A stretch of 64,000 nt of DNA from Psilocybe cubensis (taxonomy: Eukaryota): NCBI GenBank assembly GCA_017499595.2, contig CM039005.1, positions 620,001 to 684,000 on the forward strand, given 5' to 3'. The number at the start of each line of letters is the position of its first letter. Position 1 is the stretch's first letter. Positions 1 to 28,079 of this stretch are shown here, piece by piece. The notes under the pieces are model-generated. The model was not told where the DNA came from and did not search any database. It saw nothing but the letters and a program-made list of their open reading frames with translations. Position numbers and translations under genes: made by a program.

Positions 1-927
1 GCATCAAGACCTGCGCCTGCTCAGCGAGCTTGAGGACGGAGTAAGTAAACAAGCTATTCAACATGGAACACTGCTGACTGACCTGGACACGCAGAACGAC
101 CTTGAATCCGTGTTCCCGAGCGGCGGAAACGCTGTCGAAAGTGAGTGCATGCTTTGTTCGTCAGACCGCCCGTGATTGACCACCCAATACCAAGGCCGTA
201 TCGATTGGGGGGCAGGGAACAATGAGACCTATGCAAAAGTAAGTTGTCGTGTCGTTCACCGTGAACCAGCCTGAACTAACCTGACCTAGACACACAGAGC
301 ACCCCCAATCTATTCAAAGGCCTACATCCGTTCAACCGGTGCAGCTCGACACATGCGCTCCGCTCGTTGTGAATCGCCCCTTGACAGCCCGCCTTGCTGC
401 GGATTCCAGTACGCGATTGGGGAATGGACTGGACGCGGTGGTGATGTGGTGGATGTGTGAGTACGCTGAGATGTTAGTAGGGAATGACTTGGAATGACCA
501 CACACAAGTACAGGTTGTGGTGTTGCCGTGGTTTCGCATCGGCCGCATATACCGTGGAGATGTGGAGGGAGGTGCCTAGTCGGTGTCCTAAGGATGCCAT
601 TGCAGGTTAGTTGACCCGTTGTTCAACGCGAGTCATGTCAAACTTACCTGAGATGTACATTGCAGGTCTGCGCTACCCTAAAATCTGGCTCTCCAATATC
701 CCAGGCGGCACTCCTGTTGAATGCGAGTCGGGAACGCCGCAGCAAGGTACGTGACTCGTGTTCTGAACAGTTGTGACTGGGGTATAACGCGTTGTTGATA
801 GGGTGGTGCTGATGGAAAGGATAACAGCAGGCAAGGGCATTCGTATCGACGCGTATGTCCCATATACGGGCAATGTCGATTCATAGCGGGAGCCGCTGCC
901 TGATTGCCTGCTCCCGTGCATTCGCCT

Positions 928-1532
928 TCAAACACGCTGAGACGCAGCTCCGCCCGCGTGCTGTCCCTCCATCGGCTCCCCTCCCTCCCCCGCCTGCTCT
1001 CCCTCATTCTCCCCCAACCCCCCCTCCTCCGGATCCAACCAACTCTCCTCAACCGTCACCTTGACCCTCCTCACATACTCCTTCATATTTTCCCTATACA
1101 ACTGCGCCGCCTCCGCATTCGCCGGGCTATTCGGGTTCGGATCATGCAGCAAGCTCTGTATACTCGTCAATATCGCCGCGACGTCGTATGTGGGCGACCA
1201 CCGGTTTTGCAGGATGTCGAGGCAGAGCTCGCTGTTCGCGTAGACGTTGGGGTGGAACATCCGCGAGAGGAATTTGACGGTGGGCGGTTTGTTGGGGTAG
1301 GACTCGTCGAATGTGAGGAGGAGCTTGAATGTGCCGTCTTCGAAGGGGGTGTCGCCTGTTGATAGGTGAGTGGCTGGGGGTGAGTGGGGAGAGGAAACGC
1401 ACCTGGCCCGAAGATGACAGCGTTCCAGAGCATAATATTGTCGGGGAGCGGACTGCCCGAGATCCCGCCTGGCGGGTCGGACGAGAGGCGCTTGAAGTCC
1501 CGGATGAGCCGTTTCTTGCAGTTCGTCGACAT
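928..1532 (-). CDS. RAD6: Ubiquitin-conjugating enzyme E2 Rad6/Ubc2, copy 1 (exons 1532-1403 and 1355-928; 185 aa; G85S variant)
   Basis: [16 protein letters not shown]...[20 protein letters not shown]...[25 protein letters not shown], with catalytic Cys at residue 88 as in Rad6. 47-nt GTGCGT..CAG intron at 1356-1402; acidic tail. Confidence 0.96.
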
Positions 1533-2719
1533 TGTTTGCTGAGTAAGATTGGGTCAAGTAATTCGGGTGGCTTTGGTTAAAGCGAGAGAGGGAGGTGTGG
1601 TCGTGTCTGAATCGCGTGCTGTTAATGAGGGCACTGCGACTGTCGTCGTACACGTCGTCTCGTATGTGGTATGCGGTATTCTAATGATGGTATGCGATAT
1701 GGATTGTAAAACCTGCAAACCCAACTTTAATTGTATCTTCCCCTACCAAACCACCCTCAAAACATACCTTTGTACGTGCGTATATGCAAGCGTAAAGTCG
1801 TCTCAGGCGGCTGGTATGAAGAAACAAGCAAGTCAGTCTAACTCAGAAGCAGTGGCAGTGGCAGGCCTCCTCATGTCACGCCCACTGACCGTGACCTGAC
1901 TCCGCCGCATCTAATCTGGAAACAAACAATAGCAACAACAATCACTCTGCCGAAATGCCGCAAGTTGACTTTGTCGTTGTAAGTATTTCATTCATCCACA
2001 ACGGTTGCCCTGAACGATGAGGACGCTCTTTCACTCGCAACGGCGCTTGTTCGATTCCCCGCACCCATTGCGCTGTGTCCTGATTGCCCCCGCCGCCTGC
2101 TACAATCTTCAAAGTAGTCAACGTATCACTGTGATTTGACTTTGCCCTCGCCTACGGTCTGGTAAGCATACCACACACTGCAAAGTGCAAAGTGCGGACC
2201 ACCGGACCCGACGCGCTCGTGCCTGTTTGGCCTCTACCGTGTCCGCGTCCATCAGCCCACACATGCACACACGCGCTATGCAAACATCACACCGGCACCC
2301 CTGACTCAACCCAACTCCCGCGTTCCAATGCGTTGAGATTTGCACTGTGTAGCGTATCTCGAGAACCACAGGGTATAGCACAACGACTCTCGATGTCTCA
2401 GGGATGCTTACTCTGAGCGCAACAATTCTCAATGACAGAGACAAAGCAGGACATTTTTTGTATTTTAAGAACACACTTTTGTAAAATTCTAACCAAAAAA
2501 GGCAAAATCTATTTATAACTGAAAAAAAGAGCCTTGTCCACAATGTCCAACCCTCTTCTGGTAACAAACTTCAAGGGTTTCCCCTCCCCCGAAGGGCAGA
2601 GAAACAAAGTGACGGGGTGAGGTCCCCCGACACATGGTGGGTTAGTAGCAGAAACAGCGGGAAGGGGCATAAAAAGTCAGTGGGGCAAGTCCATAGCCCT
2701 ACCGTAAAGCTCCGAAAAC

Positions 2720-4180
2720 ATACCTAAGCAGGTTTCTAGATAAATACAAGTCTGCGAGAGATTCAGAATACAACTTACTTGGTAAAGTTTTTGTCATTCA
2801 ATGGATGCAACGGCAGCAGGCGGCATCGGTGTCAACTACAATCAAAGTCAGTCACAGTCTATTCAAAGTACAATTCTACAGACTTACCATTCCGAATCTC
2901 GCTCGACGGACGGAAATACATAGCGTCGAGGGTTTTTGCTTGTAAGAAATTTCTAGAGTCAAAGTTAGCAGTAGTTTAGGGAAAGTAAAATCAAGCCCAC
3001 GTACCAACTATCGTGTCAAAGCACTCGTGCAGATGCCCCATCCTGCTCGTCGGACGTCGATATATGGTCTCAAGGTAAATCTAGAGCCAAGGTCAGTAAA
3101 AATCCAATAAATGAATGCCATACATACATACCTCAACGGGCACACAGCTAACAACGCCTGCTCGGCGGACGGCGATACGTCGTGTCAAGGCAAAATCTAG
3201 GGTCACGGGTCAGTGATAATTAATGCAAACCAAGTTGAAGTACACTTACCACTTGGTGTAGATCCTCACACTCGGTCGGCGGACGTCGATACATCATGTC
3301 AAAGCAAAATCTAGGGTCACGGTCAGCTTTAATTAATGCAAAGCATGTCGAAGTACACATACCACGGGTTTTAGATCCCCACACTCGGTCGGCGGACGTC
3401 GATACATTGTGTCAAAGCGAATCTAGGGTCAAGGTCAGTCTTTGTACATTAAATAAAACTAAAACACACATACCTATGCACCAGAGGTCCAATCCCGGTC
3501 AGCGGACGGCGATACGTCGTGTCAAAGTCTAGAGTCAGAGTCAGTCTCTGTACATTAAATAAAAGTAAACCACACATACCTGTACACCAGAGGTCCAACC
3601 CCGCTTGGCGGACGTCGATACGTCATGTCAGAGCAAATCGGGGTCACCCAGACATCCAATCCCACTCGGCGGACGTCGATACGTTGTGTCAGAGCAAATC
3701 TGAGGTCAAGGTCAGTGTGAGTACATATCATAAAAGTAATACACACATACCTGAAGACCAGAGGTCCAATCCCGCTCGCCGGACGTCGATACGTCGTGTC
3801 AGAGCAATATCTAAGGCCAGGGTTAGTCACAACTTGTTCAACGAATGCTACAGCACACTTACCACAATAGTGAGGAGGCAGGTAACAGGCGCGCTCGGCG
3901 GACGGCGATACGTCGTGTCAGGACTAAATCTTGGGATAAAATCAGTCTCCGTTTGGTAAATAAATGATACACAACTTACCAGCTCGCCGGAACGCGATAC
4001 ATAGCGTCGGGCTATGTTAACAGGGCATAAATCCTTGGATCAAAGTCAGTCTCACTTCTTCAACAAACATCACAGCACATACCAGGTCGGCGGAACACGA
4101 TATATAGTGTCGAAGCAATTCCATGTCGAGAGGGGTAGCACACCACCATACTGACAGCATGGGTACAAAGTAGATGGATA
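2720..4180 (-). ncRNA. Putative multi-intron non-coding transcript built from repeated motif exons (copy 1)
   Basis: 12 copies of a motif like TGACACGACGTATCGACGTCCGCCGA at ~110 bp spacing. They are separated by ~50-nt introns with GTATGT/GTAAGT/GTACGT donors, CTGAC/CTAAC branch points and YAG/AAG acceptors. There is an upstream TATAAA and no open frame after splicing. Confidence 0.6.
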
Positions 4181-4205
4181 AAAAAAACCCAATATCAGAG
4201 TTCTC

Positions 4206-4211
4206 TTTATA
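4206..4211 (-). promoter_or_regulatory. TATA box of the repeated-exon unit
   Basis: Minus strand GTATAAAGAG ~130 bp upstream of the first donor; conserved in copy 4. Confidence 0.5.
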
Positions 4212-4658
4212 CCTTTTTCACCCCAAACTTTTTCAAAGCCCGCTCTCAGTCACGTAGCAACACTTCTTTCTAGCTTCATCATTTTTACTAGCTTCGCTTC
4301 CGAATATTTCCTCATGCCATAACTTTGCATAATAGGAGACCTTTACATCCCTTTCTCCACTCCCTCAAACGTGGAATATCAAGCCACAGTGCACCACAAG
4401 GCACAAAACTCACTCGCCAAGTCGCAATTGGCTCAAATTCATGTCCCGTGCAGTAAAAAACCTCACTCCTATCAAGTGAAAATTGTTACGCCATTTTGTA
4501 ATACCACGTACTAATCTTTGGTAAAGGTCCTCGTTTCAATTTCTACAGCACATCTAGCTCTGATTTCAATGCAGTAATAGCGTTATCTTCTCCCCAAAGT
4601 ATTTTTTGGGATTACTTGCTGCAGACCGGTCAATTCGAAAGCTATGTCATCACATTCA

Positions 4659-4812
4659 GACACTCTGCACAGGATGCGCTGACGCTGATGCTGCAGACTC
4701 TGCGCAAACGATGTGCTTACGCTAACGCTACAGAGTCTGCGCACACAATGCGCTGACGCTGACTCTGTGCACAGGATGCGCTGCCGCTGACTCTGTACAC
4801 ACGATGCGCTGG
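4659..4812. repeat. Minisatellite, ~5 units of 28-38 bp (GACTCTGYRCACAVGATGCGCTGACGCT-like); present in each full unit
   Basis: Direct inspection; also at ~13135, ~21611 and ~29830. Confidence 0.8.
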
Positions 4813-7800
4813 CACTTGGTATTACAACATCGGCTCGCCGGCGTTCACAAGCCCAGGAACGAGATCACAACTTCCGACGCTCTAGCCTCGTTTAACTAAT
4901 CGTTAAATCTACGACAAATCGCCCACAGGATCACGATCTACGCGTGTTCATTAGGACCCTGCCCTAATTCCCCACAGGTGCGTCATCATTCCACTCTAGG
5001 TTTAGTTTGCATCTCAGGAACACAAATTCGACTGTAAAGTCTATTTTTCACCTCCGTTCCGAGTCGACGTCATTCACGACAACAACAGTTGGTTCGACTT
5101 TGCGAGAGATGTTGGTATTTCGGATATGTTTACAACAGTACGTCCTTTGAGTCCTGGTTACTAATCTCACGGGTGACGGAATCATTCGAAAATTAGACAC
5201 TTCCTTCAAACGCAGGTGCGTGCCAAAGCCGACATCCCACTCTATCGATACATCTCGTCTTACTCGTAACCCACTATTTTGAAGTGTTCCGTTCCATTTG
5301 ACTTTGAGACTAGCGCGTCAGATAATCGGGAGTTGCTATATTCGAGTGCGCCCGAAAACACATCTATGCAACAACGTCAAGGCCAGTACTCTGACGTACC
5401 GCATTTGTTATCTCACCTTTTGCTTGTGTAGACGTGCTATGACCTCAACGTAGACATTCAGGAGGTGATTTACGGTGACAACTCACCTTCATTCCAACAT
5501 TTCCCCAGTTCAAATTCGCATGTCAACCACGGCGCGGATACCTCCTCGTCTCCCGATTCGTCATTCTAGCGCGTTGCAACCGTCTCATATACCTCGCTTC
5601 CAAGAATAGGCTAGTCTAGACTAGTCGGTAACGACAGCCGGAAGCTCGCAAAACTGAGCAACCAATATGAATGTGCTGCAGAACACACATACGTGGCAGC
5701 CGTTCCCGCGCCGTTTATCACTTTTTCGAGGTTTCAGGGCTTTCTGGGTACTGTATAATGTAGTATATCCCACGCCAAGCGTGTTTGTAGGTCCTTTGGC
5801 AGCGTGAAGTTGAGATAATCAAAAATACATCCGGGGCATCTCAGGAGAGATTCAAACACAAAAACAAGCGTTTGCGAGGCTTTGAAATCACCGTGAAGAT
5901 CGATAATGACTACCTAGATAATCTATAATGTGTATACGTCATGACGAATGCAGTAAACTAAGAGTACGGGTAACATTTCAAGCCACAGATGTTAAGCGCC
6001 CAAGCAAACAGCTTCACGCAGACTGTAAATTAGCAAAACACATCGATTCCAATGCTCTATAGACACACCTCGCATACCATACATATCTCAGAGTACACTA
6101 TAAGACATACATACACTCACATATCTCGTCAACGAACCGTCAAGTCCACAACCTCACACTCACGTACCTCCTCCGGCCCCCAATCCGCATTCCAGCCCAT
6201 TTCCACTGCTTCCTTTCATTTCGGGGCATCATCCCCACTAGCATAAGACTACTCGGCTGCGGCACGGAGCGTTCCGAGACCTAGAAGCAGGACAGAAATG
6301 AGTTGCAGTGTAATGCGTCTCGAGGGAGGATATGTACGTGGCATGCGATTCTGCGTCGTTTGCGCGTTTTAAGCGGGTTGGGGTGCTTTTACTGGGTGAT
6401 ATGGGTTAGGTGTGTATGGGGTAAAGCTTGAAAGTACATCAGGGAACCTACAATTGAGTTTATGCGTGTATGTGATGTCGTTGTTCAAATTCGCTTTAGG
6501 AAACGTACATTTGCGAATTGGGCCGTTTTGAGGTATTCAGATGCTACAGTACTGTTTAAAATAGGGGTATATATTCATATTTATGCTTACCTGAGTAAGT
6601 ACAAAGTGGAAATTTCAAAGATTTGCAGCGATGAACCCTTAAGCGCCGAAAGCGTTGAATCGCAAATACAACAAATAAACGCACCAAACACACGATGGTG
6701 GACCACTAACACGCATGATACACTCACCCCTATACCATACAGCCCATTCTTCGACTCCAAAACTCCAACATCGCAAACCCAACTCACCGGACACAACACT
6801 CCTCCTCCTCGTCCGAATCTCCATTCAACCTCATTCCAACCACCTTCTTTCTCTTCACCCCTGCACGCCCACTAGCTCCAGACCCCTCGGCTATCCTAAC
6901 GTAACGTACTAACGGCGATTACTGAATTTTTTCTGCCAGTAGAAGAAGAAGCATTCTGTAGAGTCCGAGAGACGTTATACGTTGTTTTAATGCAAATTCG
7001 ATGGAATACGTACATTGGGGGGGTTGTAATGGTGCATAGGAGCCCCTGAGTAATCGAACTGAAAGTGAGTGAACGTTGGAACCAAGTCTGAACGTCGACG
7101 AAAGTTTGTGCAAGTCGGATTTCACATCAAGACAAGAAAACACAGAAACGCACAAAAGTACTATTACCATCTTCAACAAACGGACACCAGCATTGCTCTG
7201 CACCACTAACATTGTCTTAAAGTACATTCTTCACGAAACAAAATCCTAGATATTCCACACACAAAGACAGAGCGTTGACCCGATACACACCCAAGAACCC
7301 CCTCCTCCTCCCCAAAATCGCAAAATCACCTCATCCCAATACGTTTTCCTGGCTCTTCGGCTCCGGAACGGTATTCAAATCCAAATTGCGTAAACCAACT
7401 AAAAAGCGGCGTCTCATTTGAGAAGAATTAGAATGCCTGTGTTGCAACGCGAAATCAGAACAAACCATTGGAGAGATAACGGGTATGCGTACGTACGTTT
7501 GCTGTTCCCGAGTCAATTACTAGTTTATGCAATTCGATTAATGCATGGGTGAATGTGTGTTGACGATCTACGATACGAGTTGGAATTCACTTGATGCAAG
7601 GTAGATGATACTCGAGTCTAAAGTTCTGTGAGCCGCAAACCAAAAACGATTTGAATTTGAATCTCACATCTCGGACACCAATGTAAATTCAAAGCAACAC
7701 AACAATACCTCCAACACGAAACAGATAACAAACCCATTCGATCAATAGCACATTGCGTAAACGCACTAGCAACTATACCGATGAACCGCGAACCGAGAGA

Positions 7801-7861
7801 AAGACACAAAAAAAAAACATTGCAAAGACGTAACGTTATGGACGTACAGGGGCAGCAGGTG

Positions 7862-7868
7862 TATAAAA
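7862..7868 (+). promoter_or_regulatory. TATA box followed by a CT-rich tract (also at 16338, 24825, 33038)
   Basis: GTATAAAAAGG followed by a pyrimidine-rich tract at 7890-7945, a typical fungal core promoter; invariant in the diverged copies. Confidence 0.65.
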
Positions 7869-7889
7869 AGGACACGGACTAACGGGCTT

Positions 7890-9423
7890 TTTTCCTCATC
7901 CCCTCTCCTCTCCTCTTCTCACATTCTCTTCTCCCGCTCTCCGCTCAATGCCCTTGTCAGCCCGCCCCTCTCCAACATCCTACACTCGCACTGCACTGCC
8001 AATGGACGGGAACGCACCGGTACGAGTCAACGTGCCCACGACGCCGTGAGTATTCCCCATCCCTCCCCTGAGCTGCGCCACGTCTGACCCTCCCTTCGCA
8101 GGAACACGTTTGACGACGAGTAGAGGATCTGGGAGGTAGAGGTCGGAGTCGGCGACGCGCCATAAATGCCACGCTGGCATGTCGACCGGGGCATCGAGGG
8201 CAGCGCACGGTGAGCCTCTAACATTTGTTTTCGCATCACACTCCGCCAAACCGCCTTTCTCTGCAGGTTGCCACGCCATCGAGACGACGCGGGACTCGAA
8301 TGCGCGTGCTCAGCGAGCTTGAGGACGGGGTAAGTAAATGCATTATTCGACGGGTATCATTGTTGACTGACCTGGACACGCAGAACCTTGCATGTGTGTT
8401 CCCAAGAGTCGGACACGTCGTCGAAACTGTAAGTCAGTCCACACTCGTCAGCAACCGCCTGTGATTGACAACCGCTGCATCAAGACCTGCGCCTGCTCAG
8501 CGAGCTTGAGGACGGAGTAAGTAAACAAGCTATTCAACATGGAACACTGCTGACTGACCTGGACACGCAGAACGACCTTGAATCCGTGTTCCCGAGCGGC
8601 GGAAACGCTGTCGAAAGTGAGTGCATGCTTTGTTCGTCAGACCGCCCGTGATTGACCACCCAATACCAAGGCCGTATCGATTGGGGGGCAGGGAACAATG
8701 AGACCTATGCAAAAGTAAGTTGTCGTGTCGTTCACCGTGAACCAGCCTGAACTAACCTGACCTAGACACACAGAGCACCCCCAATCTATTCAAAGGCCTA
8801 CATCCGTTCAACCGGTGCAGCTCGACACATGCGCTCCGCTCGTTGTGAATCGCCCCTTGACAGCCCGCCTTGCTGCGGATTCCAGTACGCGATTGGGGAA
8901 TGGACTGGACGCGGTGGTGATGTGGTGGATGTGTGAGTACGCTGAGATGTTAGTAGGGAATGACTTGGAATGACCACACACAAGTACAGGTTGTGGTGTT
9001 GCCGTGGTTTCGCATCGGCCGCATATACCGTGGAGATGTGGAGGGAGGTGCCTAGTCGGTGTCCTAAGGATGCCATTGCAGGTTAGTTGACCCGTTGTTC
9101 AACGCGAGTCATGTCAAACTTACCTGAGATGTACATTGCAGGTCTGCGCTACCCTAAAATCTGGCTCTCCAATATCCCAGGCGGCACTCCTGTTGAATGC
9201 GAGTCGGGAACGCCGCAGCAAGGTACGTGACTCGTGTTCTGAACAGTTGTGACTGGGGTATAACGCGTTGTTGATAGGGTGGTGCTGATGGAAAGGATAA
9301 CAGCAGGCAAGGGCATTCGTATCGACGCGTATGTCCCATATACGGGCAATGTCGATTCATAGCGGGAGCCGCTGCCTGATTGCCTGCTCCCGTGCATTCG
9401 CCTTCAAACACGCTGAGACGCAG
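7890..9423 (+). ncRNA. Putative ~11-intron micro-exon transcript converging on or overlapping the RAD6 3' end (also 1-947 partial, 16366-17899, ~24850-26370, ~33065-34640)
   Basis: Introns at 8046-8101, 8210-8266, 8330-8383, 8429-8484 and 8517-8570, with further donors at ~8617, 8715, 8933, 9082, 9223 and 9329. Most have branch and acceptor signals. The reading frame is not conserved between copies. Confidence 0.55.
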
Positions 9424-10008
9424 CTCCGCCCGCGTGCTGTCCCTCCATCGGCTCCCCTCCCTCCCCCGCCTGCTCTCCCTCATTCTCCCCCAACCCCCCC
9501 TCCTCCGGATCCAACCAACTCTCCTCAACCGTCACCTTGACCCTCCTCACATACTCCTTCATATTTTCCCTATACAACTGCGCCGCCTCCGCATTCGCCG
9601 GGCTATTCGGGTTCGGATCATGCAGCAAGCTCTGTATACTCGTCAATATCGCCGCGACGTCGTATGTGGGCGACCACCGGTTTTGCAGGATGTCGAGGCA
9701 GAGCTCGCTGTTCGCGTAGACGTTGGGGTGGAACATCCGCGAGAGGAATTTGACGGTGGGCGGTTTGTTGGGGTAGGACTCGTCGAATGTGAGGAGGAGC
9801 TTGAATGTGCCGTCTTCGAAGGGGGTGTCGCCTGTTGATAGGTGAGTGGCTGGGGGTGAGTGGGGAGAGGAAACGCACCTGGCCCGAAGATGACAGCGTT
9901 CCAGAGCATAATATTGTCGGGGAGCGGACTGCCCGAGATCCCGCCTGGCGGGTCGGACGAGAGGCGCTTGAAGTCCCGGATGAGCCGTTTCTTGCAGTTC
10001 GTCGACAT
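9404..10008 (-). CDS. RAD6: Rad6/Ubc2 copy 2 (same as copy 1; intron 9832-9878)
   Basis: Identical translation at +8476 offset. Confidence 0.96.
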
Positions 10009-11195
10009 TGTTTGCTGAGTAAGATTGGGTCAAGTAATTCGGGTGGCTTTGGTTAAAGCGAGAGAGGGAGGTGTGGTCGTGTCTGAATCGCGTGCTGTTA
10101 ATGAGGGCACTGCGACTGTCGTCGTACACGTCGTCTCGTATGTGGTATGCGGTATTCTAATGATGGTATGCGATATGGATTGTAAAACCTGCAAACCCAA
10201 CTTTAATTGTATCTTCCCCTACCAAACCACCCTCAAAACATACCTTTGTACGTGCGTATATGCAAGCGTAAAGTCGTCTCAGGCGGCTGGTATGAAGAAA
10301 CAAGCAAGTCAGTCTAACTCAGAAGCAGTGGCAGTGGCAGGCCTCCTCATGTCACGCCCACTGACCGTGACCTGACTCCGCCGCATCTAATCTGGAAACA
10401 AACAATAGCAACAACAATCACTCTGCCGAAATGCCGCAAGTTGACTTTGTCGTTGTAAGTATTTCATTCATCCACAACGGTTGCCCTGAACGATGAGGAC
10501 GCTCTTTCACTCGCAACGGCGCTTGTTCGATTCCCCGCACCCATTGCGCTGTGTCCTGATTGCCCCCGCCGCCTGCTACAATCTTCAAAGTAGTCAACGT
10601 ATCACTGTGATTTGACTTTGCCCTCGCCTACGGTCTGGTAAGCATACCACACACTGCAAAGTGCAAAGTGCGGACCACCGGACCCGACGCGCTCGTGCCT
10701 GTTTGGCCTCTACCGTGTCCGCGTCCATCAGCCCACACATGCACACACGCGCTATGCAAACATCACACCGGCACCCCTGACTCAACCCAACTCCCGCGTT
10801 CCAATGCGTTGAGATTTGCACTGTGTAGCGTATCTCGAGAACCACAGGGTATAGCACAACGACTCTCGATGTCTCAGGGATGCTTACTCTGAGCGCAACA
10901 ATTCTCAATGACAGAGACAAAGCAGGACATTTTTTGTATTTTAAGAACACACTTTTGTAAAATTCTAACCAAAAAAGGCAAAATCTATTTATAACTGAAA
11001 AAAAGAGCCTTGTCCACAATGTCCAACCCTCTTCTGGTAACAAACTTCAAGGGTTTCCCCTCCCCCGAAGGGCAGAGAAACAAAGTGACGGGGTGAGGTC
11101 CCCCGACACATGGTGGGTTAGTAGCAGAAACAGCGGGAAGGGGCATAAAAAGTCAGTGGGGCAAGTCCATAGCCCTACCGTAAAGCTCCGAAAAC

Positions 11196-12656
11196 ATACC
11201 TAAGCAGGTTTCTAGATAAATACAAGTCTGCGAGAGATTCAGAATACAACTTACTTGGTAAAGTTTTTGTCATTCAATGGATGCAACGGCAGCAGGCGGC
11301 ATCGGTGTCAACTACAATCAAAGTCAGTCACAGTCTATTCAAAGTACAATTCTACAGACTTACCATTCCGAATCTCGCTCGACGGACGGAAATACATAGC
11401 GTCGAGGGTTTTTGCTTGTAAGAAATTTCTAGAGTCAAAGTTAGCAGTAGTTTAGGGAAAGTAAAATCAAGCCCACGTACCAACTATCGTGTCAAAGCAC
11501 TCGTGCAGATGCCCCATCCTGCTCGTCGGACGTCGATATATGGTCTCAAGGTAAATCTAGAGCCAAGGTCAGTAAAAATCCAATAAATGAATGCCATACA
11601 TACATACCTCAACGGGCACACAGCTAACAACGCCTGCTCGGCGGACGGCGATACGTCGTGTCAAGGCAAAATCTAGGGTCACGGGTCAGTGATAATTAAT
11701 GCAAACCAAGTTGAAGTACACTTACCACTTGGTGTAGATCCTCACACTCGGTCGGCGGACGTCGATACATCATGTCAAAGCAAAATCTAGGGTCACGGTC
11801 AGCTTTAATTAATGCAAAGCATGTCGAAGTACACATACCACGGGTTTTAGATCCCCACACTCGGTCGGCGGACGTCGATACATTGTGTCAAAGCGAATCT
11901 AGGGTCAAGGTCAGTCTTTGTACATTAAATAAAACTAAAACACACATACCTATGCACCAGAGGTCCAATCCCGGTCAGCGGACGGCGATACGTCGTGTCA
12001 AAGTCTAGAGTCAGAGTCAGTCTCTGTACATTAAATAAAAGTAAACCACACATACCTGTACACCAGAGGTCCAACCCCGCTTGGCGGACGTCGATACGTC
12101 ATGTCAGAGCAAATCGGGGTCACCCAGACATCCAATCCCACTCGGCGGACGTCGATACGTTGTGTCAGAGCAAATCTGAGGTCAAGGTCAGTGTGAGTAC
12201 ATATCATAAAAGTAATACACACATACCTGAAGACCAGAGGTCCAATCCCGCTCGCCGGACGTCGATACGTCGTGTCAGAGCAATATCTAAGGCCAGGGTT
12301 AGTCACAACTTGTTCAACGAATGCTACAGCACACTTACCACAATAGTGAGGAGGCAGGTAACAGGCGCGCTCGGCGGACGGCGATACGTCGTGTCAGGAC
12401 TAAATCTTGGGATAAAATCAGTCTCCGTTTGGTAAATAAATGATACACAACTTACCAGCTCGCCGGAACGCGATACATAGCGTCGGGCTATGTTAACAGG
12501 GCATAAATCCTTGGATCAAAGTCAGTCTCACTTCTTCAACAAACATCACAGCACATACCAGGTCGGCGGAACACGATATATAGTGTCGAAGCAATTCCAT
12601 GTCGAGAGGGGTAGCACACCACCATACTGACAGCATGGGTACAAAGTAGATGGATA
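11196..12656 (-). ncRNA. Repeated-exon spliced unit, copy 2
   Basis: Same sequence as copy 1 at +8476. Confidence 0.6.
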
Positions 12657-15600
12657 AAAAAAACCCAATATCAGAGTTCTCTTTATACCTTTTTCACCCC
12701 AAACTTTTTCAAAGCCCGCTCTCAGTCACGTAGCAACACTTCTTTCTAGCTTCATCATTTTTACTAGCTTCGCTTCCGAATATTTCCTCATGCCATAACT
12801 TTGCATAATAGGAGACCTTTACATCCCTTTCTCCACTCCCTCAAACGTGGAATATCAAGCCACAGTGCACCACAAGGCACAAAACTCACTCGCCAAGTCG
12901 CAATTGGCTCAAATTCATGTCCCGTGCAGTAAAAAACCTCACTCCTATCAAGTGAAAATTGTTACGCCATTTTGTAATACCACGTACTAATCTTTGGTAA
13001 AGGTCCTCGTTTCAATTTCTACAGCACATCTAGCTCTGATTTCAATGCAGTAATAGCGTTATCTTCTCCCCAAAGTATTTTTTGGGATTACTTGCTGCAG
13101 ACCGGTCAATTCGAAAGCTATGTCATCACATTCAGACACTCTGCACAGGATGCGCTGACGCTGATGCTGCAGACTCTGCGCAAACGATGTGCTTACGCTA
13201 ACGCTACAGAGTCTGCGCACACAATGCGCTGACGCTGACTCTGTGCACAGGATGCGCTGCCGCTGACTCTGTACACACGATGCGCTGGCACTTGGTATTA
13301 CAACATCGGCTCGCCGGCGTTCACAAGCCCAGGAACGAGATCACAACTTCCGACGCTCTAGCCTCGTTTAACTAATCGTTAAATCTACGACAAATCGCCC
13401 ACAGGATCACGATCTACGCGTGTTCATTAGGACCCTGCCCTAATTCCCCACAGGTGCGTCATCATTCCACTCTAGGTTTAGTTTGCATCTCAGGAACACA
13501 AATTCGACTGTAAAGTCTATTTTTCACCTCCGTTCCGAGTCGACGTCATTCACGACAACAACAGTTGGTTCGACTTTGCGAGAGATGTTGGTATTTCGGA
13601 TATGTTTACAACAGTACGTCCTTTGAGTCCTGGTTACTAATCTCACGGGTGACGGAATCATTCGAAAATTAGACACTTCCTTCAAACGCAGGTGCGTGCC
13701 AAAGCCGACATCCCACTCTATCGATACATCTCGTCTTACTCGTAACCCACTATTTTGAAGTGTTCCGTTCCATTTGACTTTGAGACTAGCGCGTCAGATA
13801 ATCGGGAGTTGCTATATTCGAGTGCGCCCGAAAACACATCTATGCAACAACGTCAAGGCCAGTACTCTGACGTACCGCATTTGTTATCTCACCTTTTGCT
13901 TGTGTAGACGTGCTATGACCTCAACGTAGACATTCAGGAGGTGATTTACGGTGACAACTCACCTTCATTCCAACATTTCCCCAGTTCAAATTCGCATGTC
14001 AACCACGGCGCGGATACCTCCTCGTCTCCCGATTCGTCATTCTAGCGCGTTGCAACCGTCTCATATACCTCGCTTCCAAGAATAGGCTAGTCTAGACTAG
14101 TCGGTAACGACAGCCGGAAGCTCGCAAAACTGAGCAACCAATATGAATGTGCTGCAGAACACACATACGTGGCAGCCGTTCCCGCGCCGTTTATCACTTT
14201 TTCGAGGTTTCAGGGCTTTCTGGGTACTGTATAATGTAGTATATCCCACGCCAAGCGTGTTTGTAGGTCCTTTGGCAGCGTGAAGTTGAGATAATCAAAA
14301 ATACATCCGGGGCATCTCAGGAGAGATTCAAACACAAAAACAAGCGTTTGCGAGGCTTTGAAATCACCGTGAAGATCGATAATGACTACCTAGATAATCT
14401 ATAATGTGTATACGTCATGACGAATGCAGTAAACTAAGAGTACGGGTAACATTTCAAGCCACAGATGTTAAGCGCCCAAGCAAACAGCTTCACGCAGACT
14501 GTAAATTAGCAAAACACATCGATTCCAATGCTCTATAGACACACCTCGCATACCATACATATCTCAGAGTACACTATAAGACATACATACACTCACATAT
14601 CTCGTCAACGAACCGTCAAGTCCACAACCTCACACTCACGTACCTCCTCCGGCCCCCAATCCGCATTCCAGCCCATTTCCACTGCTTCCTTTCATTTCGG
14701 GGCATCATCCCCACTAGCATAAGACTACTCGGCTGCGGCACGGAGCGTTCCGAGACCTAGAAGCAGGACAGAAATGAGTTGCAGTGTAATGCGTCTCGAG
14801 GGAGGATATGTACGTGGCATGCGATTCTGCGTCGTTTGCGCGTTTTAAGCGGGTTGGGGTGCTTTTACTGGGTGATATGGGTTAGGTGTGTATGGGGTAA
14901 AGCTTGAAAGTACATCAGGGAACCTACAATTGAGTTTATGCGTGTATGTGATGTCGTTGTTCAAATTCGCTTTAGGAAACGTACATTTGCGAATTGGGCC
15001 GTTTTGAGGTATTCAGATGCTACAGTACTGTTTAAAATAGGGGTATATATTCATATTTATGCTTACCTGAGTAAGTACAAAGTGGAAATTTCAAAGATTT
15101 GCAGCGATGAACCCTTAAGCGCCGAAAGCGTTGAATCGCAAATACAACAAATAAACGCACCAAACACACGATGGTGGACCACTAACACGCATGATACACT
15201 CACCCCTATACCATACAGCCCATTCTTCGACTCCAAAACTCCAACATCGCAAACCCAACTCACCGGACACAACACTCCTCCTCCTCGTCCGAATCTCCAT
15301 TCAACCTCATTCCAACCACCTTCTTTCTCTTCACCCCTGCACGCCCACTAGCTCCAGACCCCTCGGCTATCCTAACGTAACGTACTAACGGCGATTACTG
15401 AATTTTTTCTGCCAGTAGAAGAAGAAGCATTCTGTAGAGTCCGAGAGACGTTATACGTTGTTTTAATGCAAATTCGATGGAATACGTACATTGGGGGGGT
15501 TGTAATGGTGCATAGGAGCCCCTGAGTAATCGAACTGAAAGTGAGTGAACGTTGGAACCAAGTCTGAACGTCGACGAAAGTTTGTGCAAGTCGGATTTCA

Positions 15601-17879: not shown

Positions 17880-18484
17880 TCAAACACGCTGAGACGCAGC
17901 TCCGCCCGCGTGCTGTCCCTCCATCGGCTCCCCTCCCTCCCCCGCCTGCTCTCCCTCATTCTCCCCCAACCCCCCCTCCTCCGGATCCAACCAACTCTCC
18001 TCAACCGTCACCTTGACCCTCCTCACATACTCCTTCATATTTTCCCTATACAACTGCGCCGCCTCCGCATTCGCCGGGCTATTCGGGTTCGGATCATGCA
18101 GCAAGCTCTGTATACTCGTCAATATCGCCGCGACGTCGTATGTGGGCGACCACCGGTTTTGCAGGATGTCGAGGCAGAGCTCGCTGTTCGCGTAGACGTT
18201 GGGGTGGAACATCCGCGAGAGGAATTTGACGGTGGGCGGTTTGTTGGGGTAGGACTCGTCGAATGTGAGGAGGAGCTTGAATGTGCCGTCTTCGAAGGGG
18301 GTGTCGCCTGTTGATAGGTGAGTGGCTGGGGGTGAGTGGGGAGAGGAAACGCACCTGGCCCGAAGATGACAGCGTTCCAGAGCATAATATTGTCGGGGAG
18401 CGGACTGCCCGAGATCCCGCCTGGCGGGTCGGACGAGAGGCGCTTGAAGTCCCGGATGAGCCGTTTCTTGCAGTTCGTCGACAT
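17880..18484 (-). CDS. RAD6: Rad6/Ubc2 copy 3 (same as copy 1; intron 18308-18354)
   Basis: Identical translation at +16952 offset. Confidence 0.96.
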
Positions 18485-19671
18485 TGTTTGCTGAGTAAGA
18501 TTGGGTCAAGTAATTCGGGTGGCTTTGGTTAAAGCGAGAGAGGGAGGTGTGGTCGTGTCTGAATCGCGTGCTGTTAATGAGGGCACTGCGACTGTCGTCG
18601 TACACGTCGTCTCGTATGTGGTATGCGGTATTCTAATGATGGTATGCGATATGGATTGTAAAACCTGCAAACCCAACTTTAATTGTATCTTCCCCTACCA
18701 AACCACCCTCAAAACATACCTTTGTACGTGCGTATATGCAAGCGTAAAGTCGTCTCAGGCGGCTGGTATGAAGAAACAAGCAAGTCAGTCTAACTCAGAA
18801 GCAGTGGCAGTGGCAGGCCTCCTCATGTCACGCCCACTGACCGTGACCTGACTCCGCCGCATCTAATCTGGAAACAAACAATAGCAACAACAATCACTCT
18901 GCCGAAATGCCGCAAGTTGACTTTGTCGTTGTAAGTATTTCATTCATCCACAACGGTTGCCCTGAACGATGAGGACGCTCTTTCACTCGCAACGGCGCTT
19001 GTTCGATTCCCCGCACCCATTGCGCTGTGTCCTGATTGCCCCCGCCGCCTGCTACAATCTTCAAAGTAGTCAACGTATCACTGTGATTTGACTTTGCCCT
19101 CGCCTACGGTCTGGTAAGCATACCACACACTGCAAAGTGCAAAGTGCGGACCACCGGACCCGACGCGCTCGTGCCTGTTTGGCCTCTACCGTGTCCGCGT
19201 CCATCAGCCCACACATGCACACACGCGCTATGCAAACATCACACCGGCACCCCTGACTCAACCCAACTCCCGCGTTCCAATGCGTTGAGATTTGCACTGT
19301 GTAGCGTATCTCGAGAACCACAGGGTATAGCACAACGACTCTCGATGTCTCAGGGATGCTTACTCTGAGCGCAACAATTCTCAATGACAGAGACAAAGCA
19401 GGACATTTTTTGTATTTTAAGAACACACTTTTGTAAAATTCTAACCAAAAAAGGCAAAATCTATTTATAACTGAAAAAAAGAGCCTTGTCCACAATGTCC
19501 AACCCTCTTCTGGTAACAAACTTCAAGGGTTTCCCCTCCCCCGAAGGGCAGAGAAACAAAGTGACGGGGTGAGGTCCCCCGACACATGGTGGGTTAGTAG
19601 CAGAAACAGCGGGAAGGGGCATAAAAAGTCAGTGGGGCAAGTCCATAGCCCTACCGTAAAGCTCCGAAAAC

Positions 19672-21132
19672 ATACCTAAGCAGGTTTCTAGATAAATACA
19701 AGTCTGCGAGAGATTCAGAATACAACTTACTTGGTAAAGTTTTTGTCATTCAATGGATGCAACGGCAGCAGGCGGCATCGGTGTCAACTACAATCAAAGT
19801 CAGTCACAGTCTATTCAAAGTACAATTCTACAGACTTACCATTCCGAATCTCGCTCGACGGACGGAAATACATAGCGTCGAGGGTTTTTGCTTGTAAGAA
19901 ATTTCTAGAGTCAAAGTTAGCAGTAGTTTAGGGAAAGTAAAATCAAGCCCACGTACCAACTATCGTGTCAAAGCACTCGTGCAGATGCCCCATCCTGCTC
20001 GTCGGACGTCGATATATGGTCTCAAGGTAAATCTAGAGCCAAGGTCAGTAAAAATCCAATAAATGAATGCCATACATACATACCTCAACGGGCACACAGC
20101 TAACAACGCCTGCTCGGCGGACGGCGATACGTCGTGTCAAGGCAAAATCTAGGGTCACGGGTCAGTGATAATTAATGCAAACCAAGTTGAAGTACACTTA
20201 CCACTTGGTGTAGATCCTCACACTCGGTCGGCGGACGTCGATACATCATGTCAAAGCAAAATCTAGGGTCACGGTCAGCTTTAATTAATGCAAAGCATGT
20301 CGAAGTACACATACCACGGGTTTTAGATCCCCACACTCGGTCGGCGGACGTCGATACATTGTGTCAAAGCGAATCTAGGGTCAAGGTCAGTCTTTGTACA
20401 TTAAATAAAACTAAAACACACATACCTATGCACCAGAGGTCCAATCCCGGTCAGCGGACGGCGATACGTCGTGTCAAAGTCTAGAGTCAGAGTCAGTCTC
20501 TGTACATTAAATAAAAGTAAACCACACATACCTGTACACCAGAGGTCCAACCCCGCTTGGCGGACGTCGATACGTCATGTCAGAGCAAATCGGGGTCACC
20601 CAGACATCCAATCCCACTCGGCGGACGTCGATACGTTGTGTCAGAGCAAATCTGAGGTCAAGGTCAGTGTGAGTACATATCATAAAAGTAATACACACAT
20701 ACCTGAAGACCAGAGGTCCAATCCCGCTCGCCGGACGTCGATACGTCGTGTCAGAGCAATATCTAAGGCCAGGGTTAGTCACAACTTGTTCAACGAATGC
20801 TACAGCACACTTACCACAATAGTGAGGAGGCAGGTAACAGGCGCGCTCGGCGGACGGCGATACGTCGTGTCAGGACTAAATCTTGGGATAAAATCAGTCT
20901 CCGTTTGGTAAATAAATGATACACAACTTACCAGCTCGCCGGAACGCGATACATAGCGTCGGGCTATGTTAACAGGGCATAAATCCTTGGATCAAAGTCA
21001 GTCTCACTTCTTCAACAAACATCACAGCACATACCAGGTCGGCGGAACACGATATATAGTGTCGAAGCAATTCCATGTCGAGAGGGGTAGCACACCACCA
21101 TACTGACAGCATGGGTACAAAGTAGATGGATA
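19672..21132 (-). ncRNA. Repeated-exon spliced unit, copy 3
   Basis: Same sequence as copy 1 at +16952. Confidence 0.6.
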
Positions 21133-24100
21133 AAAAAAACCCAATATCAGAGTTCTCTTTATACCTTTTTCACCCCAAACTTTTTCAAAGCCCGCTCTCA
21201 GTCACGTAGCAACACTTCTTTCTAGCTTCATCATTTTTACTAGCTTCGCTTCCGAATATTTCCTCATGCCATAACTTTGCATAATAGGAGACCTTTACAT
21301 CCCTTTCTCCACTCCCTCAAACGTGGAATATCAAGCCACAGTGCACCACAAGGCACAAAACTCACTCGCCAAGTCGCAATTGGCTCAAATTCATGTCCCG
21401 TGCAGTAAAAAACCTCACTCCTATCAAGTGAAAATTGTTACGCCATTTTGTAATACCACGTACTAATCTTTGGTAAAGGTCCTCGTTTCAATTTCTACAG
21501 CACATCTAGCTCTGATTTCAATGCAGTAATAGCGTTATCTTCTCCCCAAAGTATTTTTTGGGATTACTTGCTGCAGACCGGTCAATTCGAAAGCTATGTC
21601 ATCACATTCAGACACTCTGCACAGGATGCGCTGACGCTGATGCTGCAGACTCTGCGCAAACGATGTGCTTACGCTAACGCTACAGAGTCTGCGCACACAA
21701 TGCGCTGACGCTGACTCTGTGCACAGGATGCGCTGCCGCTGACTCTGTACACACGATGCGCTGGCACTTGGTATTACAACATCGGCTCGCCGGCGTTCAC
21801 AAGCCCAGGAACGAGATCACAACTTCCGACGCTCTAGCCTCGTTTAACTAATCGTTAAATCTACGACAAATCGCCCACAGGATCACGATCTACGCGTGTT
21901 CATTAGGACCCTGCCCTAATTCCCCACAGGTGCGTCATCATTCCACTCTAGGTTTAGTTTGCATCTCAGGAACACAAAGTCGACTGTAAAGTCTAATTTT
22001 CACCTCCGTTCCGAGTCGACGTCATTCACGACAACAACAATTGGTTCGACTTTGCGAGAGATGTTGGAATTTCGGATATATTTATCACAGTACGTCCTGC
22101 GAGTTCTTGTTGCCGCTATTCTCACGGGTTACGAAATCACTCGAAAATTAGACACTTCCTTCAAACGCAGGTGCGTGTCGAAGCCGACAACCCACTGGAC
22201 CGACACATCTCGTCTTGCCCGTAAGCCGCTCCTTTGTAGTCTTCCGTTCCCGTTGACTTTGAATGAAACGGACTAGCGCAGAGTTGCTAGATTCGAGTGC
22301 GCCCGAAAACACATCTATGCGACAACGTCAAGGCAAGTAATCTGACGCACCGCATTCGTTATCTCACCTTTTGCTTGTGTAGACGTGCTATGACCTCAAC
22401 GTAGACATTCAGGAGGTGATTTACGGTGAGAACTCACCTTCATTCCAACATATCCCCAGTTCAAATTCGCATAAACCACGGCGCGGATACCTCCTCGTCT
22501 CCCGATTCGTCATTCCAGCGCGTTGGAACCGTCTCATTTACCTCGCTTCCAAGAATAGGCTAGTCCAAATTGCCTAGACTAGTCGGTAACGACAGCCGGA
22601 AGCTCGCACAACTGAGCAACCATCTGCAGAACACACATACGTGGCAGCCGTTCCCGCGCCGTTTATCACTTTTTTGAGGTTTCAGGGCTTTCTGGGTACT
22701 GTCTAATGTAGTGTATCCCACGCCAAGCGTGTTTGTAGGTCGTTTGGCAGCGTGAAGTTGAGATAATCAAAAATACATCCGGGGCATCTCAGGAGAGATT
22801 CAAACACAAAAACAAGCGTTTGCGAGGCTTTGAAATCACCGTGAATATAGATAATGGCTACCTAGATAATATACACTGTGTAATTATGATGACAAATGAA
22901 GTAAACTAAGAGGATGGGTAACCACAGATGTTAAGCGCCCAAGCAAACAGCTTCACGCATACTGTAAATGAGCAAAATACATCGATTCCAATGCTCTACA
23001 GACACACCTCGCATACCATACATATCTCAGAGTACACTATAAGACATACATAAACTCACATATCTCGTCAACGAACCACCAACTCCACAACCTCACACTC
23101 ACGTACCTCCTCCGGCCCCAAATCCGCATTCCAGCCCATTTCCACTGCTTCCTTTCATTTCGGGGCATCATCCCCACTAGCATAAGACTACTCGGCTGCG
23201 GCACGGAGCGTTCCGAGGCCTAGAAGCAGGACAGAAATGAGTTGCAGTGTAATGCGTCTCGAGGGAGGATACGTACGTGGCATGCGATTCTGCGTCGTTT
23301 GCGCGTTTTAAGCGGGTTGGGGTGCTTTTACTGGGTGATATGGGTTAGATGTGTATGGGGTAAAGCTTGAGAGTACGTCAGGGAGCCTACAATTCAGTGT
23401 ATGCGTGTATGTGATGTCGTTGTTCAAATTCGCTTTAGGAAACGTACATTTGCGAATTGGGCCGTTTTGAGGTATTCAGATGCTACAGTACTGTTTAAAA
23501 TAGGGGTATATATTCATATTTATGCTTACCAGAGTAAGTACGAAGTGGAAATTTCAAAGATTCGTAGTGATACCTCTTAAGCGCCGAAAGCGTTGAATCA
23601 CAAATACCACGAATAAACGCACCAAGCACACAACGGTGGATCAATAACAGGCTTAACACACTCACCCCTATACCATACAGCCCATTCTTCGACTCCAAAA
23701 CTCCAACATTGCAAACCCAACTCACCGGACACAACACTGCTCCTCCTCATCCGAATCTCCATTCAACCTCATTCCAAACGTCTTCTTTCTCTATCCCTGC
23801 ACGACCACTAGCTCCAGACCCCTCGGCTATCCTAACGTAACGTACTAACGGCGATTACTGAATTTTTCTTTTTTTTTGCCAGTAGAAGAAGAAGCATTCT
23901 GTAGAGTCCGAGAGACGTTATACGTTGTTTTAATGCAAATTCGATGGAATACGTACATTGGGGGGGTTGGAATGGTGCATAGGAGCCCCTGAGTAATCGA
24001 ACTGAAAGTGAGTGAACGTTTGAGCCAAGTCTGAACGTCAAGGAAAGTTTGTGCAAGTCGGATTTCACATCAAGACAAGAAAACACAGAAACGCACGAAA

Positions 24101-26349: not shown

Positions 26350-26978
26350 TCAAACACGCTGAGACGCAGCTCCGCCCGCGTGCTGTCCCTCCATCGGCTC
26401 TCCTCCCTCCCTATCAACCTCGTCCATCTCCACCTCCCCTCCCTCCCCCTCACCCTCGCCCAAACCCCCCTCCTCCGGATCCAACCAACTCTCCTCAACC
26501 GTCACCTTGACCCTCCTCACATACTCCTTCATATTCTCCCTATACAACTGTGCCGCCTCCGCATTCGCCGGGCTATTCGGGTTCGGATCATGCAGCAAGC
26601 TCTGTATACTCGTCAGTATCGCCGCGACGTCGTACGTCGGCGACCACCGGTTCTGCAGGATGTCGAGGCAGAGCTCGCCGTTCGCGTAGACGTTGGGGTG
26701 GAACATCCGCGAGAGGAATTTGACGGTGGGGGGTTTGTTTGGGTAGGACTCGTCGAATGTGAGGAGGAGCTTGAATGTGCCGTCTTCGAAGGGGGTGTCG
26801 CCTGTTGATAGGTGAGTGGCTGGGGGTGAGTGGGGAGAGGAAACGCACCTGGGCCGAAGATGACAGCGTTCCAGAGCATAATATTGTCGGGGAGCGGACT
26901 GCCCGAGATCCCGCCTGGCGGGTCGGACGAGAGGCGCTTAAAGTCCCGGATCAGCCGTTTCTTGCAGTTCGTCGACAT
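26350..26978 (-). CDS. RAD6: Rad6/Ubc2 copy 4 (intron 26802-26848; 193 aa; canonical NGELC)
   Basis: [15 protein letters not shown]; several synonymous changes versus copy 1; different acidic tail ([18 protein letters not shown]). Confidence 0.96.
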
Positions 26979-28079
26979 TGCTTGCTGAGTAAGATGGGTC
27001 AAGTAAGTCGGTGTGCTGGTGTAGTGGTGTGGTATGCGGTATGCTAATGCCAATGGGTATGTTATGATGCGATATGGATTGTAGAACCTGCGTTAATTGT
27101 ATCTTCCTGTACCAAACCACCTTTGTACGTGCGTATATGCAAGCGTAAAGTCGTCTCAGGCGGCTGGTATGAAGAAACAAGCAAGTCAGTCCAACTCAGA
27201 AGCAGTGGCAGTGGCAGGCCTCCTCATGTCACGCCCACTGACCGTGACCTGACTCCGCTGCATCTAATCTGGAAACAAACAATAGCAACAACAATCACTC
27301 TGCCGAAATGCCGCAAGTTGACTTTGTCGTTGTAAGTATTTCATTCATCCACAACGGTTGCCCTGAACGATGAGGACGCTCTTTCACTCGCAACTGCGCT
27401 TGTTTGATTCCCCGCCCCTGCCCCGCCGAGTCCTTCCGCTCCCGGGTAATCGCGCTCGTCGCATACTGTAACCACGATCGACAAGTCATCAACATACAGT
27501 CGCCCGTCGCCGCTCAACTATGACAACACGCATCACACGCTATACACTACCAGTTCTATGTAGACCACCCGACGCGGACGCAATCGCAATTGCGCCTCCA
27601 ACTACATCCATTTACCACCGTACTCATGAGTTTACCGCAGCTTTGCAATATATTTTTGTTGTGCCTATTGTGTACTTGAAATATTGTTTACCCCAGTGCC
27701 TTCAAGGTTTGTCATGATGCTGCGTGTTTACTATTTACTGATCGACGGGACAATTCTCGTGATATCATGGTTTATTCAATGCACTCTATTCGTCATGATT
27801 GTAATGAATTTCGTAAAATTCTAACCAAAACAGGCAAAATCTATTTATAACTGAAAAAAACAGCCTTGTTCAAAACTTCCAACCCTCTTCTGGTAACAAA
27901 CTTCAAGGGTTTCCCCTCCCCCGAAGGGCAGAGAAACAAAGTGACGGGGTGAGGTACCCCGACACAAGGTGGGTTAGTAGCATACAAGGTGAGAAATACA
28001 AGTCGGCGAGAGAATACTCGTGTAGTGAAAACAACGGATGGTGTTTTCGGACCGCCGAGTCAAATGGATACAGATGGCG

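Follow-up and report, generated by a model that had tools for sequence, protein, structure and literature searches.

The subject of this report is an intron-punctuated repeat array on the minus strand of Psilocybe cubensis contig CM039005.1 (assembly GCA_017499595.2), lying around positions 2720 to 4211 of a 64,000-nucleotide stretch (contig positions 620,001 to 684,000) that is referred to throughout as the window. Read on the minus strand, the locus opens with a TATA box, which is followed by 13 exons and 12 introns of 49–55 nt that carry canonical signals. Near the 5' end of each of exons 1–11 lies a motif block of 26–28 nt near TGACACGACGTATCGACGTCCGCCGAG. A splice-signal scan of this strand, using GTRNGT for donors, CTRAY for branch sites and YAG/AAG for acceptors, returned 11 GT..AG introns of 49–53 nt, and the twelfth intron (2778–2724, 55 nt) was defined by an RNA joint. 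The internal exons measure 54, 67, 60, 120, 55, 60, 61, 65, 76, 65 and 57 nt. The original prediction for this locus, made from the letters alone, had described a minus-strand TATA box, about a dozen introns of some 50 nt with textbook splice signals, exon lengths of 54, 67, 60, 120, 55, 60 and 61 nt, and a conserved motif opening almost every exon in 12 copies, and all of these elements were recovered here. Tandem Repeats Finder reports periods of 106–113 nt with 80–86% matches, which, given the alternation of short exons and short introns, means that an exon together with an intron forms the repeat unit. Donors, branch sites and acceptors are homologous across the 11 aligned units, i.e. the introns are copies of each other and the repeat unit carries their signals. 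Exon 5 consists of two fused units (61-nt unit), the donor and most of one intron having been deleted, without regard to the reading frame, so that a branch-site remnant is left.

Four sequencing runs carry the locus, and their contigs were compared over positions 800–4700 of the window. Two of these runs (X3 and X4) are DNA-like assemblies with 0.98 and 0.96 of the words, and the other two (X1 and X2) are smaller runs from one other study, which are probably RNA according to a tool's guess, none of the runs with the locus being registered as RNA. Joints that remove introns of a downstream RAD6 gene (1354>1402, CT..AC) are seen in both X1 and X2 but in neither DNA-like run, and the RNA nature of X1 and X2 is therefore supported. 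Stretches without X1 or X2 cover (e.g. bins 1848–2502, from the array to RAD6) were not taken as separate transcripts. The features of the array, all on the minus strand and given in order of transcription, are as follows.

4205–4211: TATA box (TATAAAG), read in the sequence and identical in the diverged fourth copy of the array
4083–4180: exon 1, motif 4085–4112; the 5' end at 4180 is a modelling choice, with X1 contig cover in bin 4075–4205
4034–4082: intron 1, 49 nt, signal scan; alternative acceptor possible at 4012; no joint among the joints listed
3980–4033: exon 2, 54 nt, motif 3982–4009
3930–3979: intron 2, 50 nt, signal scan; alternative acceptor possible at 3924
3863–3929: exon 3, 67 nt, motif 3893–3920
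3811–3862: intron 3, 52 nt, signal scan and joint 3810>3863 (X1 and X2; absent from X3 and X4)
3751–3810: exon 4, 60 nt, motif 3774–3801
3700–3750: intron 4, 51 nt, signal scan; boundary implied by a contig piece starting exactly at 3699
3580–3699: exon 5, 120 nt, motifs 3664–3691 and 3603–3630; exactly bounded inside an X1 contig
3529–3579: intron 5, 51 nt, signal scan; boundary implied by a contig piece ending exactly at 3580
3474–3528: exon 6, 55 nt, motif 3497–3524; this unit is missing in the fourth copy
3423–3473: intron 6, 51 nt, signal scan
3363–3422: exon 7, 60 nt, motif 3387–3414
3311–3362: intron 7, 52 nt, signal scan
3250–3310: exon 8, 61 nt, motif 3274–3301
3197–3249: intron 8, 53 nt, signal scan; X1 loose ends at 3197 and 3250 match the adjoining exon ends
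3132–3196: exon 9, 65 nt, motif 3160–3187
3081–3131: intron 9, 51 nt, signal scan
3005–3080: exon 10, 76 nt, motif 3045–3072
2953–3004: intron 10, 52 nt, signal scan; alternative acceptor possible
2888–2952: exon 11, 65 nt, with the most diverged motif copy, 2901–2928
2836–2887: intron 11, 52 nt, signal scan and joint 2835>2888 (X1 and X2 only)
2779–2835: exon 12, 57 nt, without the motif; bounded by contig joints
2724–2778: intron 12, 55 nt, joint 2720>2776 ("cut +3", X1 and X2 only), with GT at 2778–2777 and AG at 2725–2724
2594–2723: last exon in the contigs (X1 contig piece 2594–2720, 0 other letters); 3' end not mapped

Splicing of the array follows the predicted minus-strand sites. Three joints (3810>3863, 2835>2888 and 2720>2776) occur in contigs of both X1 and X2 and are absent from the DNA runs X3 and X4, each with CT..AC on the plus strand and accordingly GT..AG on the minus strand. 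Exon 5 (3699–3580) lies centrally in a 378-nt X1 contig, with exact boundaries and 0 differing letters, and the loose ends of X1 contigs at 3197 and 3250 continue with letters of the adjoining exon, as fits the removal of intron 8. Among the joints listed, at least 6 of the 12 introns have direct or boundary support. The minus-strand splicing that had been proposed from sequence thus has a counterpart in intron-less joints of the probable RNA runs, with none in the DNA runs.

A repeat-family search places the 12 true copies of the motif from 4085–4112 down to 2901–2928, with two of them in exon 5; a further match at 2587, with 64%, is spurious. The motif always has the same orientation and the same fixed place inside the exons, carries six CpGs, of which the four in its 3' half are kept in 14–17 of 17 copies, and contains CCG/CGG triplets in its core; the branch-like word CTGAC starts only 4 of the 12 copies. 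When the 25-mer motif consensus was matched with up to 3 mismatches, the window yielded 31 matches (0.00 expected from 100 shuffles), and all 47 matches of a unit profile (nhmmer) fall within four arrays. That the 31 matches form four groups is explained by the position of the locus in an 8476-bp tandem duplication, which is described below.

Within the array, identity was measured over the 55 pairs formed by the 11 units with introns. The motif is 78% identical, with no gaps, and the donor (80%), branch site (86%) and acceptor (84%) are similarly alike, versus 51% in the variable part of the exon, 51.5% in the exon leader and 52.5% at the other intron positions. Such a contrast between the motif and splice signals and the rest of the unit cannot be reached by uniform neutral decay, and least of all for a block that holds six CpGs. 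The motif and the splice signals are selectively conserved within the array, which fits the view that what the locus maintains is the motif together with its capacity for splicing.

The segmental duplication spans positions 1–35900 of the window in four to five tandem units of 8476 bp, and provides three further arrays for comparison, all on the minus strand.

11312–12687: second array, identical to the first, offset +8476
19788–21163: third array, identical to the first, offset +16952
28094–29384: fourth array, diverged, with 10 introns

Duplication units 1 and 2 are identical throughout and unit 3 differs only from unit position 5027 onward; complete identity over more than 13 kb could be an assembly artefact. 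The fourth duplication unit has about 86% identity in a sensitive alignment and about 91% in a strict one. Its array is diverged by a few per cent, lacks one repeat unit, has 12 + 10 nt inserted in one variable segment, and ends differently at its 3' end. Persistence of the splice signals in the diverged copy had been noted in the original prediction, and indeed, 0 of 90 splice-signal positions differ between the first and the fourth array, versus 4.8 changes expected from the non-CpG rate (P = 0.009). For the motif, 8 of 120 CpG sites changed (9 of 44 elsewhere), together with 6 of 188 non-CpG sites (45 of 776 elsewhere). The comparison between these two copies gives a modest signal of recent constraint.

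As far as the tests reach, the spliced product is non-coding as it stands. The modelled spliced RNA has 968 nt, in which the longest ATG-initiated open reading frame (ORF) has 47 codons and the longest stop-to-stop frame 87, and all three frames are interrupted in the first and the fourth array alike, as anticipated in the original prediction, which had noted that the exon lengths break frame and that the spliced frames run into stops. The frame reading DTTYRRPP is open across all 12 motif copies, but the exon lengths repeatedly shift the register, no ATG in exon 1 opens this frame, and in the fourth array a TGA falls inside one motif in this frame. A hand check of the alternative acceptors of introns 1, 2 and 10 restored no frame. 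Between the first and fourth arrays, the motif frame has 3 synonymous and 24 non-synonymous differences (6:21 in each of the other frames), and the ORF of 45 codons that begins at the first ATG differs in the fourth array in one residue and in its stop position. Across 17 motif copies, the non-consensus cells fall 11, 24 and 23 on the three codon positions, with no third-position excess; the third positions of the Tyr codon and of the first Pro codon are invariant (17/17), and the first position of the second Pro codon takes all four bases. Neither a signal peptide nor a continuous start-to-stop ORF over the repeats was found in the spliced product. Protein searches for the 120-aa minus-strand ORF at 3555–3917 (similar and longer lengths searched) and for a 168-aa antisense ORF returned 0 homologues, and 1.84 billion representatives, searched with HMMER, yielded 4 weak matches (E-values 2.8e-06 to 7.7e-04) to unrelated repeat proteins without the motif. 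Homologues with an intact ORF for DTTYRRPP-type repeats, which would have pointed to a decayed repeat-protein gene, were likewise searched for in protein databases, and none were found.

Folding of the transcript was no better than chance. The hairpin GACGT-ATCG-ACGTC that had been proposed for the motif core has compensatory changes in 0 of its 5 pairs, in 8 of 17 copies two of these pairs do not form, and its paired cells amount to 75.3%, compared with 74.4% in shuffles, 114 of 500 shuffles being as good. RNAalifold predicted 0 pairs, ten single exons folded like their dinucleotide shuffles (z-scores from -1.25 to +1.57), and the modelled 968-nt RNA was less stable than 60 dinucleotide shuffles (z = +1.9). 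The consensus does allow a stem of 5 bp with a loop of 4 nt, and this stem appears in the minimum-energy folds of exon 4 and of the second half of exon 5. The idea of an RNA alternating constant hairpins with variable segments survives in its constant-plus-variable layout, and fails in its hairpin, for which neither compensation nor an RNAalifold pair was found. That no described RNA family would match was borne out by Rfam, which had 0 matches at the gathering score over the whole 64-kb window; over positions 1–9000, with E-values up to 1, it gave only SNORD45 (23.7 bits versus a gathering score of 42, E = 0.57). The variable segments, compared with the 64-kb window, matched nothing significant outside the arrays (best 16/17 nt, E = 0.011).

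Downstream of the array on the same strand, once per duplicated unit, lies a RAD6/UBC2-type ubiquitin-conjugating enzyme (E2) gene (UQ_con, E = 3.4e-39). Genes of this type are normally single copy. Here up to five copies are seen on the minus strand, at 928–1900, 9404–10376, 17880–18852, about 26400–27000 and 34743–35621, of which one is clearly diverged (87% over 1.6 kb). The RAD6 introns are removed in RNA contigs, and variant letters in these contigs suggest that more than one copy is expressed. Pfam, run on 68 ORFs of the window, identified only UQ_con, KDZ, CxC2 and a weak B-box, with UQ_con alone in the 8.5-kb unit, and no processing or tailoring genes nearby; the KDZ (Kyakuja-Dileera-Zisupton) transposase with its CxC2 cysteine cluster lies on the plus strand at 44263–46512 (E = 2.5e-38 and 4.4e-15). 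Together with the short introns, this element would suggest a basidiomycete. On the other side of the array, a spliced plus-strand transcript (window 4245–5400) starts at about 4245–4256, some 35–45 nt upstream of the array's TATA box, and has a GT..AG intron at 4476–4526 and no long ORF. Inside it lies a GCTGACGCTGAC-rich minisatellite (4673–4811) with periods of 37 and 28. The region 4000–5000 around this divergent promoter is the best-conserved part of the unit outside RAD6 when copies 1 and 4 are compared. At the 3' end of the array transcript, upstream of RAD6 and beside a TATAAATA box at about 2517, lies the stretch 2503–2633, which both DNA runs cover 2–3 times as deeply as the sequence on either side and which is probably a dispersed repeat.

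Contigs of X1–X4 that touch 3771–3807, 3974–4117 and 3398–3417 consist of a leader-plus-motif block followed by sequence unlike the window, and one such RNA contig has high depth. In addition, some DNA contigs carry two motif blocks 31–38 nt apart with other spacers, an arrangement that does not occur in the window and that would fit intron-less, possibly retro-copied paralogues. These contigs suggest that further family members may exist elsewhere in the genome, possibly intron-less. Beyond this genome, a scan of metagenome DNA with a 25-nt pattern had 0 matches, and a looser 26-nt IUPAC pattern hit 2 loci, with one match each, on GC-rich, bacteria-like contigs without a second core motif, which we read as chance. 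A full-text literature search found no description of such a fungal array, which is no proof that none exists.

Our preferred interpretation, which we hold tentatively and rate as somewhat short of probable, is that the array is a gene for a young, lineage-restricted, spliced long non-coding RNA (lncRNA), and that the poorly structured mature form of this RNA exposes the repeated motif as a series of binding sites. A module of about 111 bp (an exon of about 60 nt and an intron of about 51 nt) would have been duplicated in tandem to build the gene, transcription would begin behind the TATA box, and the removal of twelve short introns would yield an RNA of about 1 kb, in which the CpG-rich motif of 26–28 nt recurs 12 times, every 55–75 nt or so, with unrelated variable stretches in between. 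The motif would be held constant at the nucleotide level, and a sequence-specific factor may bind its many single-stranded copies in the mature RNA, which would act as a decoy or a scaffold.

Several points weigh against this interpretation. The evidence for splicing consists of assembled contigs from one study whose RNA nature is a tool's guess, with no full-length isoform seen. The proposed motif-binding factor is, on present analysis, purely hypothetical, and the motif may, with low probability, instead act at the level of DNA. Divergence between the first and fourth arrays amounts to 3–7% per 250-nt bin, which is within the 4–8% range of flanking intergenic sequence, and the array is less conserved than the adjoining 4000–5000 stretch (1–3% divergence). 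The signal of recent constraint on the motif depends on 14 substitutions and on a CpG rate (9/44) that is noisy, and since three of the four arrays are identical, the comparison of paralogues is effectively one pair. Finally, no relative was found outside this genome, and there is therefore no cross-species conservation to lean on; this absence is weak, as the searches covered protein databases and metagenome scans and no fungal genome collection.

The main alternative, which we consider rather unlikely although it explains the older conservation of the motif, is that the array is the transcribed relic of a repeat-peptide gene made of modules of about 20 residues ([F/C]xD-T-T-Y-R-R-P-P-S plus a variable tail), one per exon. 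The frame would have been lost through indels of 1–2 nt at exon starts, partial intron deletion and stops, leaving a spliced and functionless transcript. The DTTYRRPP frame is the only one open in all 12 copies (the second gains a TGA in the copies with ATG, and the third starts with TGA), most exons are open in it from end to end, two exons are exactly 60 nt, and the differences in exon length fall in T-runs at exon starts. Older selection at the peptide level would also supply the contrast of 78% versus 51% identity between motif and spacer, and recent evolution without coding constraint is what one expects of a pseudogene. A functionless relic would, however, be expected to have altered some of its 90 splice-signal positions, whereas 0 of them differ (P = 0.009), and the distribution of motif variation over codon positions (11, 24, 23) does not show the third-position excess of a coding past. 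Moreover, exon 1 offers no ATG for the motif frame, no protein with such repeats came up in the protein searches, and the Pfam-scanned ORFs include no processing or tailoring gene.

It is unlikely, in our view, that the transcript is a neutral by-product, i.e. a young, splice-competent, minisatellite-like array behind an active and possibly bidirectional promoter, whose RNA has no function and in which youth, gene conversion and mutational heterogeneity give the semblance of conservation. Uniform neutral decay cannot account for a CpG-rich 27-nt block at 78% identity beside spacer and intron bodies at 51–52%, gene conversion would homogenize contiguous tracts rather than one block across all units, and neither the unchanged splice signals (0/90) nor the retention of the four 3'-half CpGs in 14–17 of 17 motif copies is accounted for. 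Such a by-product would nevertheless be expected to diverge within the intergenic range, as the array does, and to lose, fuse and expand its units freely, as seen in the missing unit and the 22-nt insertion of the fourth array and in the fusion in exon 5. The spliced plus-strand transcript without a long ORF close to the TATA box suggests permissive transcription, the metagenome scans gave no relatives, and the origin of introns and exons from internal tandem repeats is documented in human genes (PMC2812944).

A quite improbable possibility is that the motif works in the DNA, as the site of a DNA-binding protein with a cis-regulatory or chromatin role directed at the divergent promoter or at the downstream RAD6 gene, and that transcription and splicing are incidental. 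Zinc-cluster factors, which read CGG/CCG triplets, could be one example, and the conserved core does contain CCG/CGG triplets and retained CpGs; the placement of the array between the divergent promoter and a same-strand RAD6 gene and the lack of RNA structure are also in its favor. A role in DNA only leaves unexplained that the splice signals are as strongly conserved as the motif, as well as the single orientation of the motif and its fixed place inside exons. As for a structured RNA, with motif hairpins as a scaffold or with the variable segments as guides in a putative small-RNA precursor, we regard it as very improbable, and reject the hairpin itself, in spite of a drawable stem-loop that appears in the folds of exon 4 and the second half of exon 5 and of a real constant-plus-variable layout, given the lack of compensatory pairs, the 0 pairs in RNAalifold, exon z-scores of -1.25 to +1.57 and +1.9 for the spliced RNA, and the absence of an Rfam match at the gathering score and of significant targets for the variable segments in the window.

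Returning to the preferred interpretation of a spliced lncRNA with reiterated binding sites, an extended version of it is doubtful: a fungal family of modular lncRNAs with one unstructured 26-nt binding motif per mini-exon, in which splicing is required to bring the motifs to a spacing of 55–75 nt, array length is tuned by unequal crossing-over of exon–intron modules, and further members exist in the genome. If the motif is a working RNA element, the array would be a rare example, from a filamentous fungus, of a functional lncRNA built of repeats, and with one motif per mini-exon and copy number set by module duplication, binding-site dosage would, if this is true, be easily evolved. It would also be a clear case, outside animals, of a tandem array giving rise to many introns at once. 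Should the array prove to be a relic or a by-product, the lesson would be that a conserved block in a transcript that is really spliced, at textbook signals, is not enough to make a structured RNA.

The array resembles several known systems in part. In Dscam-type clusters, alternative exons are mutually exclusive. The array shares with them tandem, similar exons, each flanked by introns, and differs in having neither flanking coding exons nor an ORF; mutually exclusive use of its exons was rejected, because consecutive exons (3 to 4, 8 to 9 and 11 to 12) are joined in RNA contigs. Host genes of small nucleolar RNAs (snoRNAs) are spliced, lack ORFs and have many introns, all of which applies to the array transcript, whereas conservation in the array lies in the exons and not in the introns; a snoRNA host gene was rejected because the introns, at 49–55 nt, are too short, and Rfam found no snoRNA at the gathering score.

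Repeat-peptide precursors are known both as Kex2-processed repeat proteins and as fungal repeat-type precursors of ribosomally synthesized and post-translationally modified peptides (RiPPs), e.g. those of ustiloxin and phomopsin. Like these, the array has a tandem, peptide-like motif with a dibasic RR and variable linkers; unlike them, it comes without an ORF, a signal peptide, a coding signature or protein relatives, and without tailoring genes such as DUF3328 nearby. The interrupted frames, the lack of a synonymous or third-position excess, and the lack of tailoring genes speak against this candidate.

Closer to the preferred reading are lncRNAs that bear repeated protein-binding sites. NORAD has units with Pumilio sites, and the fission-yeast meiRNA has DSR (determinant of selective removal) motifs. 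In Gomafu/MIAT, tandem UACUAAC repeats bind SF1 (PMC3116199). Like these RNAs, the array gives a non-coding transcript of the RNA polymerase II type, with a TATA box and canonical introns that are removed, in which a short motif recurs about a dozen times along the mature RNA, is conserved above its surroundings (78% versus 51–52%) and does not require a conserved fold. It differs in that no binding protein or orthologues are known for it, in that its motif is a CpG-rich block of 26 nt that corresponds to no known protein-binding consensus, and in that each motif sits in its own mini-exon with introns of about 50 nt in between, an architecture not met in the literature examined. A branch-site decoy in the manner of Gomafu was also considered; only 4 of the 12 motif copies start with CTGAC, and the SF1 mechanism is therefore not indicated.

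With regard to its origin, the array is comparable to introns born from tandem arrays. The formation of introns and exons from tandem repeats was reportedly described by Zhuo et al. in PNAS in 2007. Internal tandem repeats in human genes gave rise to introns and exons (PMC2812944), and as in those cases, splice signals borne by the repeat unit yield many similar short introns in an array that is young and varies in copy number between paralogues. The human examples concern protein-coding genes and are often alternatively spliced (PMC2812944), whereas here the whole transcript body is an array, non-coding and fungal, and one part of the exon matches the splice signals in its degree of conservation.

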